Virus record (IMG/VR): IMGVR_UViG_3300021963_000002
Location: 6,686-70,685 of that record
Length of the DNA stretch: 64,000 bases
From: a virus
Strand: one strand, 5' to 3'
This document shows positions 9,559-31,079 of the stretch, piece by piece (position 1 is the stretch's first letter; every line of letters begins with the position of its first letter). A program made the position numbers and the translations under genes. A model generated the notes under the pieces. It had not been told where the DNA came from. It saw only the letters and a list, made by a program, of their open reading frames with translations, and did no database searches.

Positions 9559-9749
9559 TGCCCCAGATGGAACTGGAGGAGGCTCTGCAGATCCTGTACC
9601 GGGGGCAGAGCAATGTCGCAGTCATGGCCCCCCGGGTCGGGCTGAGCACGGAGCAGCTCAAGCGCTTGTTCCGCGAATACGTCGGGCGCAACCCCCTGGA
9701 TGACGAGGCGTGGAAGAGCGATGTTGAAATTTCCTGGCCTTACGTCTGA
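9558..9749 (+). CDS. Small HTH-like protein
   Basis: TGATG coupling; NVAVMAPRVGLSTEQLKRLF HTH-like; 3' end overlaps integrase 3' end. Confidence 0.55.
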   Translation: MPQMELEEALQILYRGQSNVAVMAPRVGLSTEQLKRLFREYVGRNPLDDEAWKSDVEISWPYV

Positions 9750-10828
9750 GTAAGGCGGCTTTGGATCGAGCGCTTTAGGTCCTCCTTCTTGCACCATTTC
9801 AGGTAGGTCTTGCGGTGCACGTCCACCCCGTGGCCCATGAGCTGAGCGGCGTCCTCGGTCCGGACATGGCTGTAGCGCTCGTGGGTGTGGAGGCGAGCGG
9901 CGTAAGCGTGGCGGAGGTCGTAGCTCGACGGTTCATGCCAACCCGCCAGATGCTTCCACCGGGTGAAAAAGGTGGAGACCTTGGCCCCCAGCTCTCGGTG
10001 GGTCGATTCCGAAATGAATTCGGGTAAGGGGCCGTTGATCAGGTCCCACCGCTCTACCCATTCCTGGTGAGCCGGCATGACCGGGCGGTAGCCGGTCTTG
10101 GAGTTGGAGGAGATCTCGATCCAGCCCCTGGCGTCGGGTCGGGATTCCAGGCGGAAGACTTCGTGGTTGCGTAGGCCGTAGGTGGCGATCAGGCCCATGG
10201 CGGTTTTCCAGGGACCGTCGCTCAAGCTGTCGACGAACTGAATGACCTGCTCATCTCGGGGGAGGTCCCGGGGGTCGAGGATCTTCTGCGCGCTGAAGGT
10301 GCTCTCAGCTCTGGTGCGGGCTAGCCAGTCACGGTCGATATCGAGCCCGATCTCGAACAGGCGACGGGTGGTGGTGACGCGGCGGAGGCGCTCGCGGCTG
10401 TCATGCGGTGCCGCCAAAACCCACCTCTTAATAGTGAGCACGTTCACCGAACCGGGTAGGGCACGGAGCTCCCTGATGTGCCGGGCGTAATCCGTGTGGA
10501 TCGTCGTGCCTTTACGGGTTAGGTGCTCCTTCAGACGCATGGTCAGGGCCGTCCACCCGGTCAGCTCCTCCGCTACCGGTGGTGTCTTGGCGAGCGCACC
10601 TGGGTCCTCCTGAAGCTGGAGGCAGAGGGTGAAGACCCGGTTCAAGCCGTCAGACTCGCGGGAATCTATACCCGTGGACTTGACCTTCATGCCGTCCTGA
10701 AAAAGTTCCGTGGAGCGGATGTAGAAGATCGGTGATTGAGAGGTCAGTCGTATGCGGTACTTACAGCCCATCTCAGCGAGGACGGCGTTGCGCTCCTGCC
10801 AAGCGGGTTGGCTTTGATATCTACCCAT
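9740..10828 (-). CDS. int: Tyrosine recombinase / phage integrase
   Basis: Catalytic set: TYGLRNHE (R), SKTG (K), DLRHAYAAR (HxxR), LMGH (H), HRKTY (Y). Confidence 0.92.
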   Translation of the reverse strand: MGRYQSQPAWQERNAVLAEMGCKYRIRLTSQSPIFYIRSTELFQDGMKVKSTGIDSRESDGLNRVFTLCLQLQEDPGALAKTPPVAEELTGWTALTMRLKEHLTRKGTTIHTDYARHIRELRALPGSVNVLTIKRWVLAAPHDSRERLRRVTTTRRLFEIGLDIDRDWLARTRAESTFSAQKILDPRDLPRDEQVIQFVDSLSDGPWKTAMGLIATYGLRNHEVFRLESRPDARGWIEISSNSKTGYRPVMPAHQEWVERWDLINGPLPEFISESTHRELGAKVSTFFTRWKHLAGWHEPSSYDLRHAYAARLHTHERYSHVRTEDAAQLMGHGVDVHRKTYLKWCKKEDLKRSIQSRLTQT

Positions 10829-11062
10829 ATCTTTACTCCGGGAGGTCCGTCCAAACTAGGATGAGACTGCCTGCGGTGCAAGGGATCCCAGTCCAGGACT
10901 GGTGTCCTGTTTTGTATTCGTGTCTCAAGTCAGTGCCCAAGCGGCTTTTCTGCGGCTTAGAAGGCAGAATACACTCGTTGCGCGGGAAGGGATCTCATCC
11001 AGTCTCTACTTGCGCTTTACACGGAAACGCAGATCTGGATTGGATGTGCGGGGGTGGTGAAG

Positions 11063-11136
11063 CGGGCCGTGCTGGACTCGAACCAGCGACCGAGTACTTA
11101 GAAGGTACTTGCTCTATCCAACTGAGCTAACGGCCC
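11063..11136 (-). tRNA. tRNA-Arg (anticodon TCT)
   Basis: Cloverleaf: acceptor GGGCCGT/ACGGCCC, D-arm GCTC/GAGC, anticodon arm AGTAC-CTTCTAA-GTACT, T-arm GCTGG-TTCGAGT-CCAGC; no encoded CCA. Confidence 0.95.
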
Positions 11137-11194
11137 AAAACCCTTGCAGTAACAAGGTTGAGGCAATCTAGCTCGGGCGGGGAATTGTTCGCTT

Positions 11195-11223
11195 TGTAAC
11201 AACCGCTACACCGTTTCTAAGAT
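11195..11223 (+). promoter_or_regulatory. NtcA binding site (TGTA-N8-TACA, 11195-11210) overlapping the -35 region of a promoter with -10 TAAGAT (11218-11223)
   Basis: Perfect GTA-ACAACCGC-TAC box; position relative to -10 fits a repressor geometry. Confidence 0.75.
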
Positions 11224-11229
11224 TGGGAC

Positions 11230-11297
11230 ACGTTGGGTGCAGGAGCACCTGCACTGCAGTTGGTGTCTGGCCAGGCAACGGGGGCTGGACCGCTGAC
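11230..11297 (+). ncRNA. Glutamine riboswitch (glutamine-II / Downstream-peptide type)
   Basis: P1 CGTTG(11231-35)/CAACG(11276-80); P2 GTGCAGG-AGCA-CCTGCAC; TGCA junction; pseudoknot TCTGGCC(11266-72)/GGCTGGA(11283-89); directly upstream of a DUF4278-like ORF. Confidence 0.75.
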
Positions 11298-11307
11298 GGA
11301 GCGACCC

Positions 11308-11490
11308 ATGAACGTCCTCAACCACCTGTCCTTGATCAAGGACAACATCGTGCGCGAACAGGCCCTTAACGCCGCCCAGATGGTTTCCCTGAAGGCGTAC
11401 CGAGGAGTGCCCTACACCGAGGCACCGCACCAGGAGCACGTCTCCGCTGACCTCATGTACCGGGGACACGGGTATCACCTCGATAGGTGA
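11308..11490 (+). CDS. DUF4278-like small protein (glutamine synthetase inactivating factor-related family)
   Basis: Two YRGxxY motifs (AYRGVPY, MYRGHGY); GGAG RBS at 11298. Confidence 0.75.
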   Translation: MNVLNHLSLIKDNIVREQALNAAQMVSLKAYRGVPYTEAPHQEHVSADLMYRGHGYHLDR

Positions 11491-11511
11491 CAGGCGCCGA
11501 ATCGACCACTA

Positions 11512-11550
11512 GCTGATCAGCTCTGCTTATAGAGTTGATCAGCCTCCTTT
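11512..11550 (+). terminator. Intrinsic terminator-like hairpin after DUF4278-like gene
   Basis: GCTGATCAGCTCT-GCTTAT-AGAGTTGATCAGC followed by CTCCTTT. Confidence 0.6.
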
Positions 11551-11566
11551 ATGTATTGCCCTGAGA

Positions 11567-11722
11567 ATCTAACGCGACTACCGGCTCGGAATGCCTGGTT
11601 TATCCGCAGTTTTCACAGTCTCACGATTCTCGAAAACCCGCTTCAGGACTGGGTTGACGCATCCGGGATAATTTCCAGCCTTTTAACACCCTGGTTTTTC
11701 CGCAGGATCTAACGCGACTACC
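11567..11722 (+). repeat. Permuted direct repeats A (ATCTAACGCGACTACC) and B (CCTGGTTTWTCCGCAG) arranged A-B...B-A
   Basis: A at 11567-82 and 11707-22; B at 11594-609 and 11690-705. Confidence 0.85.
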
Positions 11723-12759: not shown

Positions 12760-12920
12760 CCCTTGCCTTGACCCCTGTACTTCTTGCGAGCGCTGGAGCG
12801 TTTGGTGCGGCCAGAAAATACGCGGCTGCGGACGCGCCAGCCGTCACCAATGCGAGTGCGCTTGGGTTTACCCGCAATGTGGATGGTTCCACTTAGTCCC
12901 TTGCGTGCCTTAACTGCCAT
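12756..12920 (-). CDS. Small basic protein ending KKYRGQG
   Basis: TAATG coupling to endolysin stop; resembles small basic cyanophage proteins. Confidence 0.6.
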   Translation of the reverse strand: MAVKARKGLSGTIHIAGKPKRTRIGDGWRVRSRVFSGRTKRSSARKKYRGQGKG

Positions 12921-14101
12921 TACTTGTTGAGGAGAATGCCCCACCCAGTCCCAGGACCTTCAACGGTCCAGCGGGGGCGCAGGTTTTTGATCGAGTACTT
13001 GAGGTGATCGCCGTTGGTGTTTTTCAGGTAGCCACCGGCAACCACGTTCATCTCCCCGTACGGATCGTTCACGATGAAGTGGCTGTCCGTGAGACCCACC
13101 ACCAGGAGCCAGTGCCCCGTACCAGTGGGGGCCGAGCTGGGGCCTTTGTGCAGGACGCCAATCGGAACGGGAATTCCCTTTTCCAGCTGGGCCTTCAGGT
13201 CTGAGATGTCCAGGTTTTGGCGGTAGGAGCCATTGACGCCAAAGGATTCCATGGCCTTGAGCTGGGCCTGGTAATCGGTGGTGTCGCCGAACTGCTGAAC
13301 GCGGCGCAGATAGAAGTCGTCTTTCTGGGCGGATTGCAGCTTGCCCGGGCGGAGGAAGTCCACCGCCATCGCGCAGGTGCTCGAGAAACACATCCGCAAG
13401 CCCTGGTCCGTGTTGGAGTCGAGCTGGGAGAAGAAAGGAACCGGAAGGCTCAGGAGCTTCGGCTGAGGAGGCTTGGCGCCAGTCTTTGGCGCGTACTGAT
13501 CCATCAGCCGGATGATTTTCGAGCTGTACTCGGGATCCGTTGCGTACCGCTCTTTGACAAGGAGCTGGGCGGCCTCCTCTCTGGTGGCGGCGCGGTTGAC
13601 CCCTTTGTACTGCTCCCAGTCCTTGTACCAGCGATCAACGATGTAATCGACGCCTTCTTGGATCGAGGCGAAGTTTCGGAAGTTGGCCTCGATGGTGACC
13701 CACTTACCGTCGATGAATTCCTGCGTGGTCTTGATCGTGCCTTTGGCCCGACCAGTTGACTTGACGCCCCAGTAGTTAAACCGACCTGACGGGGCACGGC
13801 CGAACGACGATTCGAGTGCCCACTGCGCCGCCAGCAGCTCAGGGAATTTTGCGCCAGCTTGTGCGGCAGCGGTGCAGATCCCTGACCAGGTGTTTTCTAC
13901 ATCTGGACTGGGAGGCGGATTGATGGGGGCTCGGAAGAGACTAACCCATTCGGCTTGCTCCGTCATCAGAGATGGATCAGCCTTGGTGACGTGCTCTTGG
14001 AGCATGTCCGCTGCTGCCAGATGCTTCGGGTTATCAGGGTTGAAGTACCTGAAAAAATCCCGTAGTTTTCCTGTTTCAAAAGCCAGGTCAGACATCGTCA
14101 T
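12920..14101 (-). CDS. Endolysin: glucosaminidase (GH73-like) + C39-like peptidase
   Basis: AAQWALESSFG, FNYWGVK, YATDPEY; SQLD..MCFSSTCAM, GHWLLVVG, VNDPYG. Confidence 0.88.
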   Translation of the reverse strand: MTMSDLAFETGKLRDFFRYFNPDNPKHLAAADMLQEHVTKADPSLMTEQAEWVSLFRAPINPPPSPDVENTWSGICTAAAQAGAKFPELLAAQWALESSFGRAPSGRFNYWGVKSTGRAKGTIKTTQEFIDGKWVTIEANFRNFASIQEGVDYIVDRWYKDWEQYKGVNRAATREEAAQLLVKERYATDPEYSSKIIRLMDQYAPKTGAKPPQPKLLSLPVPFFSQLDSNTDQGLRMCFSSTCAMAVDFLRPGKLQSAQKDDFYLRRVQQFGDTTDYQAQLKAMESFGVNGSYRQNLDISDLKAQLEKGIPVPIGVLHKGPSSAPTGTGHWLLVVGLTDSHFIVNDPYGEMNVVAGGYLKNTNGDHLKYSIKNLRPRWTVEGPGTGWGILLNK

Positions 14102-28174: not shown

Positions 28175-28542
28175 TAGACGAAACCGAGGAACAGGGCGTT
28201 ACTAAAGTCTGAAAATTCTGCTGTCATACCGAACAGGCTGAACCACGAGGAGTAGGCCCACTCTGTTCTGGTACCGTCACGCAAAACAGCTCGTATCCTT
28301 ACTTTAACGGCTCTCTCAAACTGAGTTTGGATGCTGCAAAGCGGAGCCATGAAACTTCCGACGGCCTGCCACTCATCCTCGTCTTCGTCATCTGTATACT
28401 GCCGCTCGACTTCAAAGTAATCAAGTCGGTTGTCTGGCTGTTCCTGCCCGAACTGTGTTCCTGGTAACAGGCTGTCGGTAATAGTGTACGGACGGTAAGT
28501 CAGACTTTTCCAGCGGATCTCTATTGTGTTGTTGAAGGCCAT
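28174..28542 (-). CDS. Fibronectin-III-like tail protein
   Basis: IRW..YFEVE..W..VRIRAV..G..EW pattern; directly after TipJ-like gene. Confidence 0.5.
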   Translation of the reverse strand: MAFNNTIEIRWKSLTYRPYTITDSLLPGTQFGQEQPDNRLDYFEVERQYTDDEDEDEWQAVGSFMAPLCSIQTQFERAVKVRIRAVLRDGTRTEWAYSSWFSLFGMTAEFSDFSNALFLGFV

Positions 28543-31079
28543 CAGGGATTCACCTTTACTCCGAAGCTAATACCGCTAGGTTGCAGGGTTGGAGTGCCAG
28601 CTGGCGAGAAAAGGTTTGTGCCTCGGCTGGAAATACTGCCTGCAGATGAATTGACGAAGTCAAACTTTCGTTGGTCATATTTAATTGCAATCACCTCAAA
28701 AGTTCCTGAGGATTGCTCAGCGACTTTCTGAACACGGTATCGTCTGAACCCGTTGCCGCTGCTTTCGTCCACCAAGATCCAAAGATGAAGGCTGGATGGG
28801 GTGGAAGAGAAGCCTGAACTCAGAGTGATCGTGCGCCCAGAGACATTGCTCACTGTGGCGCTCTGAACAACACCGGAAGCGCCGTACACATACAGCTTTC
28901 TTCCGCTGTAACTGCCGCTTGGTAGCTCGCGGTCGATGGTCACGCTGGTTGTTGAAGCGGAACTGATCCTTCCCCCGTGAGTGCCGGGGGTTTTATTCCC
29001 GTCGGCAATGATGATTACGTCACCAGGAAGCAGCAGAGCCCCCTCAGTGCCTACCTTAAATGTGACTGTTTCGCTGTTATAGATATCGCTTCCGATGATG
29101 TATCGTCCGAGGCGAGCAGCTTGTTCTTGATTGGTGCATCCAAGAGCACGAACGTCAACGGGGCGGTAACCGTAGCGCTCAATTGCCTCGGGGTGATGAA
29201 CTGAGACCTTCTTCTCTTTGTAGTAATCATTGGGGTCGATATAGCTCACATTGGCAATGGTGCGCCTGGCTGCCTTTGCTACGCCCTCGTACATAAAGCA
29301 CGGGCCGGTGACCTCACCATTGTCATCTGTCTCCTGGATTACGTTGGCTTCGGAGAACAGTCTGTACTCTGTCTCATTTACGACTGGTCTGTCGATGCTC
29401 AGAGAGATCTTCCCTCCGGCGTAATAGATCTGAGCCTGGAATGTGGAGGCTACAGACTTCAGCAGGTCGTAAGCATCAGACACGCCGTCTATGTAGGCGT
29501 TGAAGGTGATGTTGTTGTCAGCGCAGTATTGTGCAGCATTCCTGAACGCGGCAAGATCAATATCTTGCATACGGATGCCAGGTTGAACCACAGTCCCCCC
29601 ACCGGCGGCCGACTTCGTGTAAGTCCGTCCTCCTACTCCGTAGCGTGCGTTGGTAATTAGGTCTAGTAATACATAAGCGGGGTTGTCGCTGTAGGCGTAA
29701 CTGACCTTTAATCCGCTGGAGATAGTGGGCACTTTAATCCCCCGCACCTTTGCGTGAATTGTGGGCATCTGTGTAAATTCAGATACATTGAATTTCATGC
29801 CCAGTAGTGCTGTCTTGGGGTACCTAAGGCGTTCCGCCCAGGTCACATCAGCGGATACGAAGCTTACTTCCCCCTTTACCCATTGGTAATTGTCTACAGT
29901 TGTCTTCCCGTCTCTGTCTGTCTCGGGGTCAGGAATATCGCCCCGGTCAAGACGAGTAACAATAATGGTGATCGGGATTGGCTGATCGGTGATATTGACA
30001 TCAATTGTTTGTATTTTCAGTGCTTTAACCAGTGTTCTAGTAAAGGTCTCGTCGTATATGACAGTGTTGGCCCCATTAACGACCCGTACGTTGTATTGAA
30101 GCGGGTTGTCTTTTCCTTTGTTGGTGTACGACTTGTAGCGTGTCCACGCGGATGTTTCCCCGCTGTGGCTCTGGATCATGTAACAGGGGCCGTAGGTCAA
30201 TCTGATCTGGAGGTTGTCCGCGTAGCTCTGTGCAAACGAGCGAATAACCTGCTGGTTGGGATCGTTGCCTTCGGTGATCGCTTGGAGTGTTGCTCCGGCG
30301 GAGAGGTGGAATCCCCCTGATTTCACGAACGTGATTGGATTCCCCGTCTGTTCCCCATCGGTAAGTTCTATGTTGTCTACTGTGATATTCCCTAGTTTTG
30401 TCCCGTTCAGGAACAAATTGTCTGAGGCTGGACCGGCGAGTCCTTCAATCTGTCCCTCGGAAATAATGCCAAGGTAGTAGCCCTTATTCTCTTCGATATA
30501 AGAGCTGATGATCGGCATTGACTGCGCGAGGAACGTGCCATACAGCAGCGGGATTGGTGTTCCTTGACTGGCCGTAGTGGATGCGCCATCGAAAACTGCA
30601 GCATCAGACTCTGCTCCTTCGCTTTTCCCTCGTTGAGGAGTCCCTGGGCTGAGGAGTCCTGCTACACCGGTAAAGATCAAGCCAAATCCCAACGCAGCGA
30701 TAGCGCTCTGGATACCTGCGGAGATTGTGCCCGCAGCACCGAATGTCACCAGACCGAAACCGGTAAATGCGAACGCGACTAGCGCGATGCCAATCAGGAT
30801 GTTGAGAATGCTGCTCCAAAATCCTTTCGAACCTGTGATTACAGGTACCAGCACCATCTCACGGCACCCAAGACCTAAGTCCTCGTAACTGATCCCTTCG
30901 TCAGTGTTGTTGGTCAGAATCTGCCAGTAGATACCGTGCTCATGCGAGCCTTCAAGGAAGGCCCGGAATCCTGGAAGCCGGTGGCACAGCGCTCTGATCG
31001 CATCCTGCGGGCTGTGCACATGCAGATTGTGAATTCGGCCGAACCGCTTACCAGCGACGCCTTCCAGGACAATCTTCAT
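28542..31079 (-). CDS. Central tail tip protein (lambda J-like) with N-terminal lambda I-like region
   Basis: G..FG..H.L.V..P.DAIRAL, PVITGS, GTPIPLLYG, ISEGQIEG, SDNPA..LDL....YG, GCT..QA.R.G, PGDVI. Confidence 0.85.
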   Translation of the reverse strand: MKIVLEGVAGKRFGRIHNLHVHSPQDAIRALCHRLPGFRAFLEGSHEHGIYWQILTNNTDEGISYEDLGLGCREMVLVPVITGSKGFWSSILNILIGIALVAFAFTGFGLVTFGAAGTISAGIQSAIAALGFGLIFTGVAGLLSPGTPQRGKSEGAESDAAVFDGASTTASQGTPIPLLYGTFLAQSMPIISSYIEENKGYYLGIISEGQIEGLAGPASDNLFLNGTKLGNITVDNIELTDGEQTGNPITFVKSGGFHLSAGATLQAITEGNDPNQQVIRSFAQSYADNLQIRLTYGPCYMIQSHSGETSAWTRYKSYTNKGKDNPLQYNVRVVNGANTVIYDETFTRTLVKALKIQTIDVNITDQPIPITIIVTRLDRGDIPDPETDRDGKTTVDNYQWVKGEVSFVSADVTWAERLRYPKTALLGMKFNVSEFTQMPTIHAKVRGIKVPTISSGLKVSYAYSDNPAYVLLDLITNARYGVGGRTYTKSAAGGGTVVQPGIRMQDIDLAAFRNAAQYCADNNITFNAYIDGVSDAYDLLKSVASTFQAQIYYAGGKISLSIDRPVVNETEYRLFSEANVIQETDDNGEVTGPCFMYEGVAKAARRTIANVSYIDPNDYYKEKKVSVHHPEAIERYGYRPVDVRALGCTNQEQAARLGRYIIGSDIYNSETVTFKVGTEGALLLPGDVIIIADGNKTPGTHGGRISSASTTSVTIDRELPSGSYSGRKLYVYGASGVVQSATVSNVSGRTITLSSGFSSTPSSLHLWILVDESSGNGFRRYRVQKVAEQSSGTFEVIAIKYDQRKFDFVNSSAGSISSRGTNLFSPAGTPTLQPSGISFGVKVNP

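Follow-up and report, generated by a model that had tools for sequence, protein, structure and literature searches.

Does a cyanophage carry a complete host-type switch for reading nitrogen status, and what would such a switch control? A locus in a stretch of virus DNA raises this question. The window, by which we mean the whole 64,000-nucleotide (nt) stretch that was analysed, comprises bases 6686–70685 of the 70,685-bp IMG/VR virus record IMGVR_UViG_3300021963_000002. At 11195–11553 it holds an NtcA-type palindromic box, a predicted −10 hexamer, a Glutamine-II riboswitch aptamer, a 60-amino-acid (aa) open reading frame (ORF) for a short DUF4278-like protein and a terminator-like hairpin, with a tRNA-Arg gene and a probable integrase alongside. 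Sequence comparison leads us to regard it as likely that this is a host-type, self-contained cassette gated by nitrogen status and carried on a probably temperate cyanosiphovirus. A preliminary description, made from the letters of the window, had drawn attention to the locus; we confirm that the elements lie where it placed them, with the labels of the RNA helices corrected. The elements of the cassette, with positions in the window, are listed here.

11195–11210, no strand assigned: NtcA-type palindromic box TGTA-N8-TACA, TGTAACAACCGCTACA, with its GTA-N8-TAC core at 11196–11209
11218–11223, plus strand: predicted −10 hexamer TAAGAT, 8 nt past the box, with TAA-AT invariant in the clade
11228–11290, plus strand: Glutamine-II (type 2, Downstream-peptide) aptamer, RF01704, 38.7 bits in Rfam
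11231–11235 with 11276–11280, plus strand: pseudoknot of the aptamer, CGUUG/CAACG
11237–11241 with 11250–11254, plus strand: helix P1 of the aptamer
11265–11272 with 11282–11283 and 11285–11290, plus strand: helix P2 of the aptamer
11298–11301, plus strand: Shine-Dalgarno sequence GGAG, 8 nt past the aptamer and 6 nt before the ATG
11308–11490, plus strand: 60-aa ORF for a short DUF4278-like protein (PHROG 545) with the motifs YRGVPY and YRGHGY, ATG at 11308
11512–11553, plus strand: intrinsic-terminator-like hairpin (11512–11543, 14 pairs) with a U-rich tail

The glutamine riboswitch proposed earlier is borne out by Rfam: the score of 38.7 bits exceeds the gathering threshold of 33, the E-value is 6.4e-06, and the match spans the full model (positions 1–60 of 60). 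The element is present as a single copy in the whole 70,685-bp genome. When eight phage aptamers were compared, non-standard cells numbered 0 in the pseudoknot, 0 in P1 and 2 of 64 in P2, and all three helices showed covariation in the form of changes on both sides; the fifth and last pair of the pseudoknot is G-C in six of the eight and C-G in two. Two helices had been misnamed. The CGUUG/CAACG helix, previously taken for P1, is the pseudoknot of the Glutamine-II class, and the supposed pseudoknot of 11259–11272 with 11283–11297 is really the nested P2 hairpin (11265–11272 with 11282–11290) plus an extension. This extension appears in the RNAfold centroid and, in our reading of the alignment, is not kept in relatives. 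In our reading of the alignments, two pairings were considered as conserved helices and rejected (L numbers denote individual loci of the family): this extended P2 stem (11259–11264 with 11292–11297) is broken in L008 and L010, and a helix of UGGGU (11234–11238) with ACCCA (11304–11308), which covaries in L013 and L014, has an A-C mismatch in L008, L009 and L010.

The other parts of the gene were likewise recovered. The GGAG ribosome-binding site is found at the same place in host loci and is weaker (GGGT, GGAA) in some phage relatives, the ORF has the two YRGxxY motifs ascribed to it, and the predicted terminator hairpin folds with z = −3.09 relative to shuffled sequences, 1 of 200 shuffles folding as well. 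Upstream of the aptamer, the NtcA-type box and the −10 hexamer are both present, and their conservation sets them apart from the surrounding sequence. An alignment that starts at the tRNA and extends to the beginning of the ORF has GTAACA..G.TACA unchanged in all 8 rows (6 of them distinct), although the N8 segment takes four forms and the flanks drift; across the clade, column identity is 0.94 in the half-sites and 0.92 in the −10 hexamer against 0.69–0.72 in the neighbouring spacers and 0.69–0.79 in the flanks. The GTA-N8-TAC palindrome that characterises NtcA promoters is thus conserved in relatives, and we treat the box as a predicted site. Its sequence is also uncommon, since TGTA-N8-TACA occurs twice in the window where 0.16 occurrences are expected (1 of 100 shuffles reached 2), and the GTA-N8-TAC core nine times where 3.5 are expected (3 of 100 shuffles reach 9). 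The second perfect TGTA-N8-TACA, at 29772–29787, falls within a tail fibre J-like ORF (28542–31079). Transcription would begin at about 11229–11231, that is, 6–8 nt past the −10 hexamer and at positions 1–4 of the aptamer model.

Conservation in cyanophages and picocyanobacteria

Homologues of the ORF were found in 92 phage records, all of them Synechococcus phages or cyanophages and including both siphoviruses and myoviruses, among them gp099 of the siphovirus S-CBS2 (43%), "gp198" of the T4-like phage S-RIM8, and proteins of S-RIM2 and S-H38. A further 173 IMG/VR stretches and 38 + 19 cellular loci also encode homologues. The seven close IMG/VR relatives have ORFs 73–83% identical in aa sequence to that of the window, and all seven keep the tRNA-Arg gene on the minus strand, the box, the −10 hexamer, the aptamer and the ORF. 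The Rfam scan took in 20 of the 80 viral loci that were fetched. Glutamine-II scores above the gathering threshold in the seven close relatives (40.3–47.7 bits) and in the S-CBS2-like locus L015 (43.3 bits), and these eight are all the siphovirus-type loci among the 20. In the isolate S-CBS2 itself the aptamer scores 66 bits and lies directly before gp099. An aptamer signature occurs within 450 nt upstream of the ORF in 50 of the 80 viral loci.

The T4-like cyanophages are organised otherwise. There the PHROG 545 ORF comes second in a small gene unit, in many cases close to nrdB and talC (L003 1201–1671, L004, L005, L016–L087), and a glutamine-aptamer-like element stands about 250 nt upstream, before another small ORF. 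These elements are mostly below the Rfam thresholds and closer to type 1, and in both respects, as in preceding a two-gene unit, the T4-like versions are unlike the cassette described here.

A subset alignment of the family yielded 38 cellular picocyanobacterial loci, which come from Synechococcus sp. RCC307, MIT S9451, MIT S9452 and UW140, several Cyanobium strains and many metagenome-assembled genomes (MAGs). Glutamine-II is above the gathering threshold in all 20 of the 38 that were tested, with scores of 42.8–58.1 bits, and ends 17–19 nt before the ORF. The aptamer signature was located in 37 of the 38 loci, one being without it, and in 34 of these 37 a GTA-N8-TAC starts 33–37 nt before the CGTT of the aptamer; the distance in the window is 35 nt. 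With a background of 0.5 occurrences of this motif per kb in the cellular loci, each locus would be expected to have 0.0025 at that position. An identical GTAACAACCGCTAC is found in three cellular loci, and host loci have a −10-like hexamer at the corresponding position. L127, on a Cyanobium MAG contig, is the nearest cellular homologue (60% aa identity) and has the same order of box, −10, aptamer, GGAG, ORF and terminator-like hairpin as the phage. Because this architecture is shared with picocyanobacteria, the phage therefore carries the whole host-type regulatory unit.

That the architecture is the host's own, and that the cassette adjoins a tRNA and an integrase, where pick-ups happen, could mean that it is passenger DNA acquired by imprecise excision beside an attachment site and without a selected role in the phage. 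We consider this very improbable. The cassette is kept in the seven close relatives in spite of ORF identities of only 73–83%; integrase homologues (76–93% identity) lie upstream in L007/L009, L011, L012 and L013, which are all the relatives with enough flanking DNA, so that integrase, tRNA and cassette occur together wherever upstream DNA is available. The cassette was not acquired recently, since the nearest copy found in the species genomes, that of L127, is only 60% identical. In all 38 cellular loci the cassette is without a neighbouring tRNA-Arg, and the homologues in isolate phage records span siphoviruses and myoviruses. The retention of the whole unit, operator, promoter, aptamer, gene and terminator, together with the spread of the family over 92 isolate cyanophage records, argues that the small protein does something from which a virus can profit.

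The components have precedents, in that the host module, glutamine riboswitches of cyanophages and NtcA sites of cyanophages are each already in print. The nearest known system is the picocyanobacterial type-2 switch with an IF17-like gene, represented by PMM1846 of Prochlorococcus MED4, for which passages of PMC6212724 and PMC6316151 describe the same aptamer class before IF17-like DUF4278 genes, a short YRG-repeat ORF and an NtcA consensus in the promoter. The phage unit differs in its location, a virus genome with an integrase and a tRNA next to it, and in encoding a subfamily with an N-terminal MNxLxLIK segment; furthermore, the phage box ends 8 nt ahead of the −10 hexamer, unlike the site in MED4, for which an overlap with the start site is described. 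The gifB gene of Synechocystis sp. PCC 6803, encoding IF17, is NtcA-repressed and activated by a type-1 riboswitch and thus likewise places two nitrogen-sensing layers on a small gene with a DUF4278 region, but its aptamer belongs to RF01739 and that of the phage to RF01704.

On the phage side, riboswitches are held to be rare according to a passage of PMC5473149, which mentions two glutamine aptamers in two cyanophage genomes. Glutamine riboswitches appear among the listed non-coding RNAs of T4-like cyanophages (passages of PMC9964418 and PMC9602691), and part of PMC9004378 reports one at the tmRNA gene of the OM43 phage Melnitz and others in pelagiphages. These aptamers, too, are phage-encoded, and S-CBS2 has the same aptamer-ORF pair; however, no downstream gene family and no NtcA operator is mentioned in the phage-riboswitch passages of these four papers, and the Melnitz aptamer is tied to a tmRNA gene. 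For cyanomyoviruses, a passage of PMC3037559 gives 1–16 NtcA sites per genome, which parallels the predicted use here of the host GTA-N8-TAC site by a phage. Those sites are portrayed there as promoters driving phage genes under nitrogen stress, whereas here the geometry suggests repression and a riboswitch is added. In the open-access papers searched, we found no description of a box, Glutamine-II aptamer and DUF4278-like gene combined in a phage; the word "phage" is absent from the text of PMC6212724. The window alone is a matter of annotation and not of a new principle. What appears most worth following is the link of PHROG 545, glutamine aptamer and NtcA-type box across cyanophage families.

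A predicted nitrogen-status gate

How might the cassette work? In our proposal, transcription would proceed from about 11230, from a promoter that has a −10 but no −35 element. Counted from the predicted start at 11230, the box is centred at about −27.5, and 8 nt separate its edge from the −10 hexamer. Classic NtcA activator sites keep about 22 nt to the −10 and are centred near −41.5. According to passages of PMC6212724, the NtcA sites of activated promoters overlap the −35 region and sites near or over the −10 repress. Given this rule on −10-proximal sites and the non-activator geometry of the box, NtcA is expected to occlude the polymerase: host NtcA, active at high 2-oxoglutarate and hence in nitrogen shortage, would bind the palindrome some 27–28 nt upstream of the start and block RNA polymerase, so that the gene would be off under nitrogen shortage. 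The sign is read from geometry, because the box has neither the activator spacing nor a position over the −10 or the start; on that footing, repression is probably the correct sign.

The predicted transcript begins with the Glutamine-II aptamer. This class is described in part of PMC6698751 as an ON switch, probably translational, whose pseudoknot is stabilised by glutamine. By analogy with such studied members (PMC6698751, PMC6212724), glutamine would stabilise the pseudoknot of the phage aptamer and open the ribosome site, and translation would be on only when glutamine is plentiful. The two layers would form an AND-type gate that yields product only when 2-oxoglutarate is low and glutamine high, the product being a 60-aa member of a YRG-repeat (DUF4278-like) family common to picocyanobacteria and their phages. 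Such a gate agrees with data on nitrogen starvation, since a passage of PMC2864571 reports the Downstream-peptide gene as down-regulated under that condition. The two-layer sensor of NtcA and glutamine claimed in the preliminary description is thus upheld by comparison, the elements being present in 7 of 7 phage relatives and 34 of 37 cellular loci, and the binding of NtcA and of glutamine stays at the level of prediction.

Several observations weigh against this gate or against parts of it. The 8-nt gap between box and −10 matches neither the activator spacing nor the MED4-type overlap of the −10 or start. A simple consensus scan gave no sigma-70 −35/−10 pair at the cassette and no −35 match. 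In the alignments of phage relatives and the leader fold, as we read them, there is no conserved alternative helix that would hide the Shine-Dalgarno sequence or start codon, and the minimum-energy structure predicted for the leader does not stand out from those of shuffled sequences (z = 0.09). Both S-CBS2, where no NtcA box was seen upstream, and L015 have the aptamer-ORF pair without a box, so the box is dispensable for the cassette in some phages. At the level of the product, the ORF misses the cut-off of DUF4278 (PF14105), scoring 19.1 against 25.3 bits (E 0.0017) and over residues 29–56 only. As to the presumed temperate life style, among 185,579 species genomes there was no copy of the ORF above 60% identity and no prophage copy, and a 35-nt stretch of the tRNA had no exact match.

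Some of these points bear on whether the palindrome is a working NtcA repressor site at all. If it were unbound, bound by another factor or activating, control would fall to the riboswitch alone. The boxless loci S-CBS2 and L015 and the unorthodox gap to the −10 would fit such a scheme, and so would the T4-like contigs, in which GTA-N8-TAC takes other positions: in 16 loci it is 52–61 nt upstream of the aptamer and directly precedes a TTGACA-like −35, and in 5 loci it is 20–22 nt upstream, there within the leader and also readable as an RNA hairpin, with the box degenerate in several contigs. We nevertheless judge this unlikely. The half-sites are invariant in the clade against variable flanks; distant picocyanobacteria share the geometry in 34 of 37 cellular loci, an indication of a host factor; and the NtcA consensus given in passages of PMC6212724 and PMC3037559 is GTA-N8-TAC. 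A GTA-N8-TAC in L015 was rejected as an NtcA box: it sits inside the P1 hairpin of that locus and is a by-product of the stem.

The 60-residue protein

The ORF matches phrog_545 at E 3.8e-13, with residues 4–57 on positions 1–54 of 55, i.e., over the full length of the profile. Its designation as a DUF4278 gene held in part. The repeated YRG expected of DUF4278 is there, as Y31 R32 G33 and Y51 R52 G53 are invariant in alignments of 13, 18 and 25 sequences, but the Pfam threshold is missed, as noted above. At the level of the family, DUF4278 is matched at E ≤ 0.01 by 17 of 18 members, the best at 3.1e-05. With a profile built on 18 phage sequences of the family, 199 proteins among 1.84 billion representatives were matched at E ≤ 0.001, and 9 of the 16 profile matches that were scanned pass the DUF4278 cut-off, including short proteins (P0024 at 28.0, P0090 at 26.5 and P0128 at 27.3 bits) and the long multi-repeat proteins P0099, P0132 and P0146. 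The subfamily to which the ORF belongs has a conserved, helix-like MNxLxLIK segment at the N-terminus. Among Protein Data Bank (PDB) sequences the family profile had no match at E up to 1.

The long proteins bear on a suggestion in the preliminary description that the product is IF-like and tunes glutamine synthetase. In this scheme the 60-aa protein would be an inactivating factor like IF17, with which the phage shuts down host glutamine synthetase when nitrogen is plentiful. The ORF does share the YRG-repeat (DUF4278) region with the true IF17-type proteins P0099, P0132 and P0146, the two regulatory layers are those described for gifB in a passage of PMC6212724, and most family members are basic like the inactivating factors (median isoelectric point (pI) 9.99, 25 sequences). 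A passage of PMC6316151, which calls the role of the short picocyanobacterial DUF4278 proteins unclear, leaves open that they inhibit a co-evolved glutamine synthetase. However, the IF7-type domain that acts on glutamine synthetase lies at the C-terminus of IF17, and the phage ORF is without it. The NCBIfam model NF052599 (GS_inact_IF7A) matches the C-terminus of P0099 (81 bits) and P0146 (90.9 bits) above its cut-off of 70, and P0132 below it (27.5 bits); at E ≤ 0.01 it matches neither the window ORF nor the short cellular homologues L127 and L105. The profile matches to the long proteins are, moreover, confined to their repeat parts. The phage ORF therefore corresponds to the N-terminal YRG-repeat moiety of IF17, a part that is described as disposable for function and as promoting stability in a passage of PMC6316151. 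The same paper relates in part that earlier work excluded IF-mediated regulation in streamlined picocyanobacteria. The window ORF also departs from the basic character of the family, being neutral with a pI of 6.96 and a net charge of 0. The claim of an effect on glutamine synthetase is thus unsupported, because the ORF lacks the IF7-type domain of true inactivating factors, and we regard an IF17-like role as improbable.

A wider proposal concerns the family as a whole. The PHROG 545 ("gp198") proteins may constitute a widespread, unrecognised auxiliary gene of cyanophages that reads 2-oxoglutarate and glutamine and acts on a target in nitrogen metabolism, be it the co-evolved glutamine synthetase or something else; it would be encoded by siphoviruses and T4-like myoviruses alike, preceded nearly always by a glutamine aptamer and in many cases by an NtcA-type box. 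Taken together, we find this rather doubtful. Under such a scheme, the cassette of the present siphovirus could serve as a lysogenic-conversion gene or tie the choice of life cycle to nitrogen status. Tractable systems for finding a target exist, for example S-CBS2 with its cultured host, Synechococcus sp. CB0204.

Three smaller observations concern the family. P0015 (127 aa), a representative protein, contains the entire short module (MNxLxLIR ... YRG ... YRG) twice in tandem. The public gene calls of P0001 (81 aa), P0008 (85 aa) and L014 (481–735) begin upstream and run through the aptamer, and probably have over-extended starts. For the host Synechococcus WH7803, part of PMC7885011 lists the DUF4278 domain-containing protein SYNWH7803_RS10040 among genes whose levels are increased at the first time point after infection by a cyanopodovirus (2.63*, later falling).

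Probable integrase, tRNA-Arg and virus genome

Is the cassette truly phage-borne, and would it be expressed in a lysogen? The record has direct terminal repeats and is rated 100% complete. The DNA to the left of the cassette encodes a primase/helicase-like protein, a family A DNA polymerase and a class II ribonucleotide reductase. Beyond about 12.9 kb the genes are mostly on the minus strand and comprise an endolysin and a lambda-like morphogenesis block with central tail fibre J, a 1606-aa tape measure protein, head protease, portal and large terminase. Given the terminal repeats and the siphovirus structural genes, the DNA is therefore a siphovirus genome and not bacterial chromosome, which substantiates the original attribution to a phage. 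The carrier is probably a temperate cyanosiphovirus of Cyanobium/Synechococcus-type picocyanobacteria. Two neighbours of the cassette bear on integration.

9740–10828, minus strand: probable tyrosine recombinase (integrase), XisA/XisC-like, 362 aa, from tblastn and Atlas neighbours
11062–11136, minus strand: full-length tRNA-Arg gene (anticodon TCT), from ARAGORN and at 67.7 bits in the Rfam tRNA model

In tblastn, the 362-aa ORF matches the annotated integrase of cyanophage P-SS2 with 25% identity over 95% of the query (E 3e-17). Its Atlas neighbours are clusters of cyanobacteria and viruses labelled XisA/XisC-type or "site-specific integrase", in one of which 65% of the members carry PF00589. 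The ORF itself has no Pfam match even at E 10, PF00589 included, and none in PHROG, NCBIfam or PDB. Because of the P-SS2 match and the Atlas neighbours we assign it to the recombinases, as a probable divergent tyrosine recombinase judged from sequence. The cassette thus does adjoin a probable integrase, as had been proposed. It may be moron-like, with its own predicted promoter and terminator, and it runs on the strand opposite to its left-hand neighbours.

That a probable integrase adjoins a complete tRNA gene suggests integration at tRNA-Arg, and the 3′ half of the tRNA is a possible attP core. The cassette might then be expressed in lysogens. Among 201 genomes, the family of one host-like genome, the best cellular match to the phage tRNA-Arg has 96% identity over the whole tRNA. 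Two of these genomes have paired matches on the same strand. Contig C23 of G057 carries a full tRNA-Arg match at 83508–83586 and a 3′-half-only match at 121290–121336, 37.7 kb apart, and contig C9 of G059 a full match at 71533–71611 and a 3′-half-only match at 80593–80639, 9 kb apart. Such pairs typically indicate that an element has inserted at a tRNA. They fit tRNA-Arg as an attachment site in these hosts; lysogeny by this phage is not thereby demonstrated. G057 also has a distant integrase-like ORF, about 1.1 kb away from its tRNA.

In the window, an inverted repeat (CCTTG ... CAAGG, 11141–11160) that was noticed by eye occupies the space between the tRNA and the box; it is absent from the terminator-scan list. 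On the minus strand a short T run follows it, immediately ahead of the tRNA. Columns 11137–11161, which cover this repeat, have an identity of 0.87 in the clade.

Near-identical DNA occurs in contigs of two further studies, labelled as marine and riverine metagenomes, and a freshwater metagenome holds a relative with 61 differences in 1401 bases. Among 20 listed sequencing runs, one RNA run touches the stretch, with a single 239-nt contig of a relative (10988–11226, depth 2.2) that is uninformative on transcription of the cassette. The endolysin (12920–14101, minus strand) combines glucosaminidase and peptidase C39-like domains according to Pfam and matches phrog_10051 at E 2.6e-130. Lastly, the ORF-poor stretch past the cassette terminator contains two direct copies of a 19-nt unit, at 11564–11582 and 11704–11722, 140 nt apart; one copy is found at the same place in the relative L006/L008, and the unit could be an arm site of the integrase or the site of a regulator.

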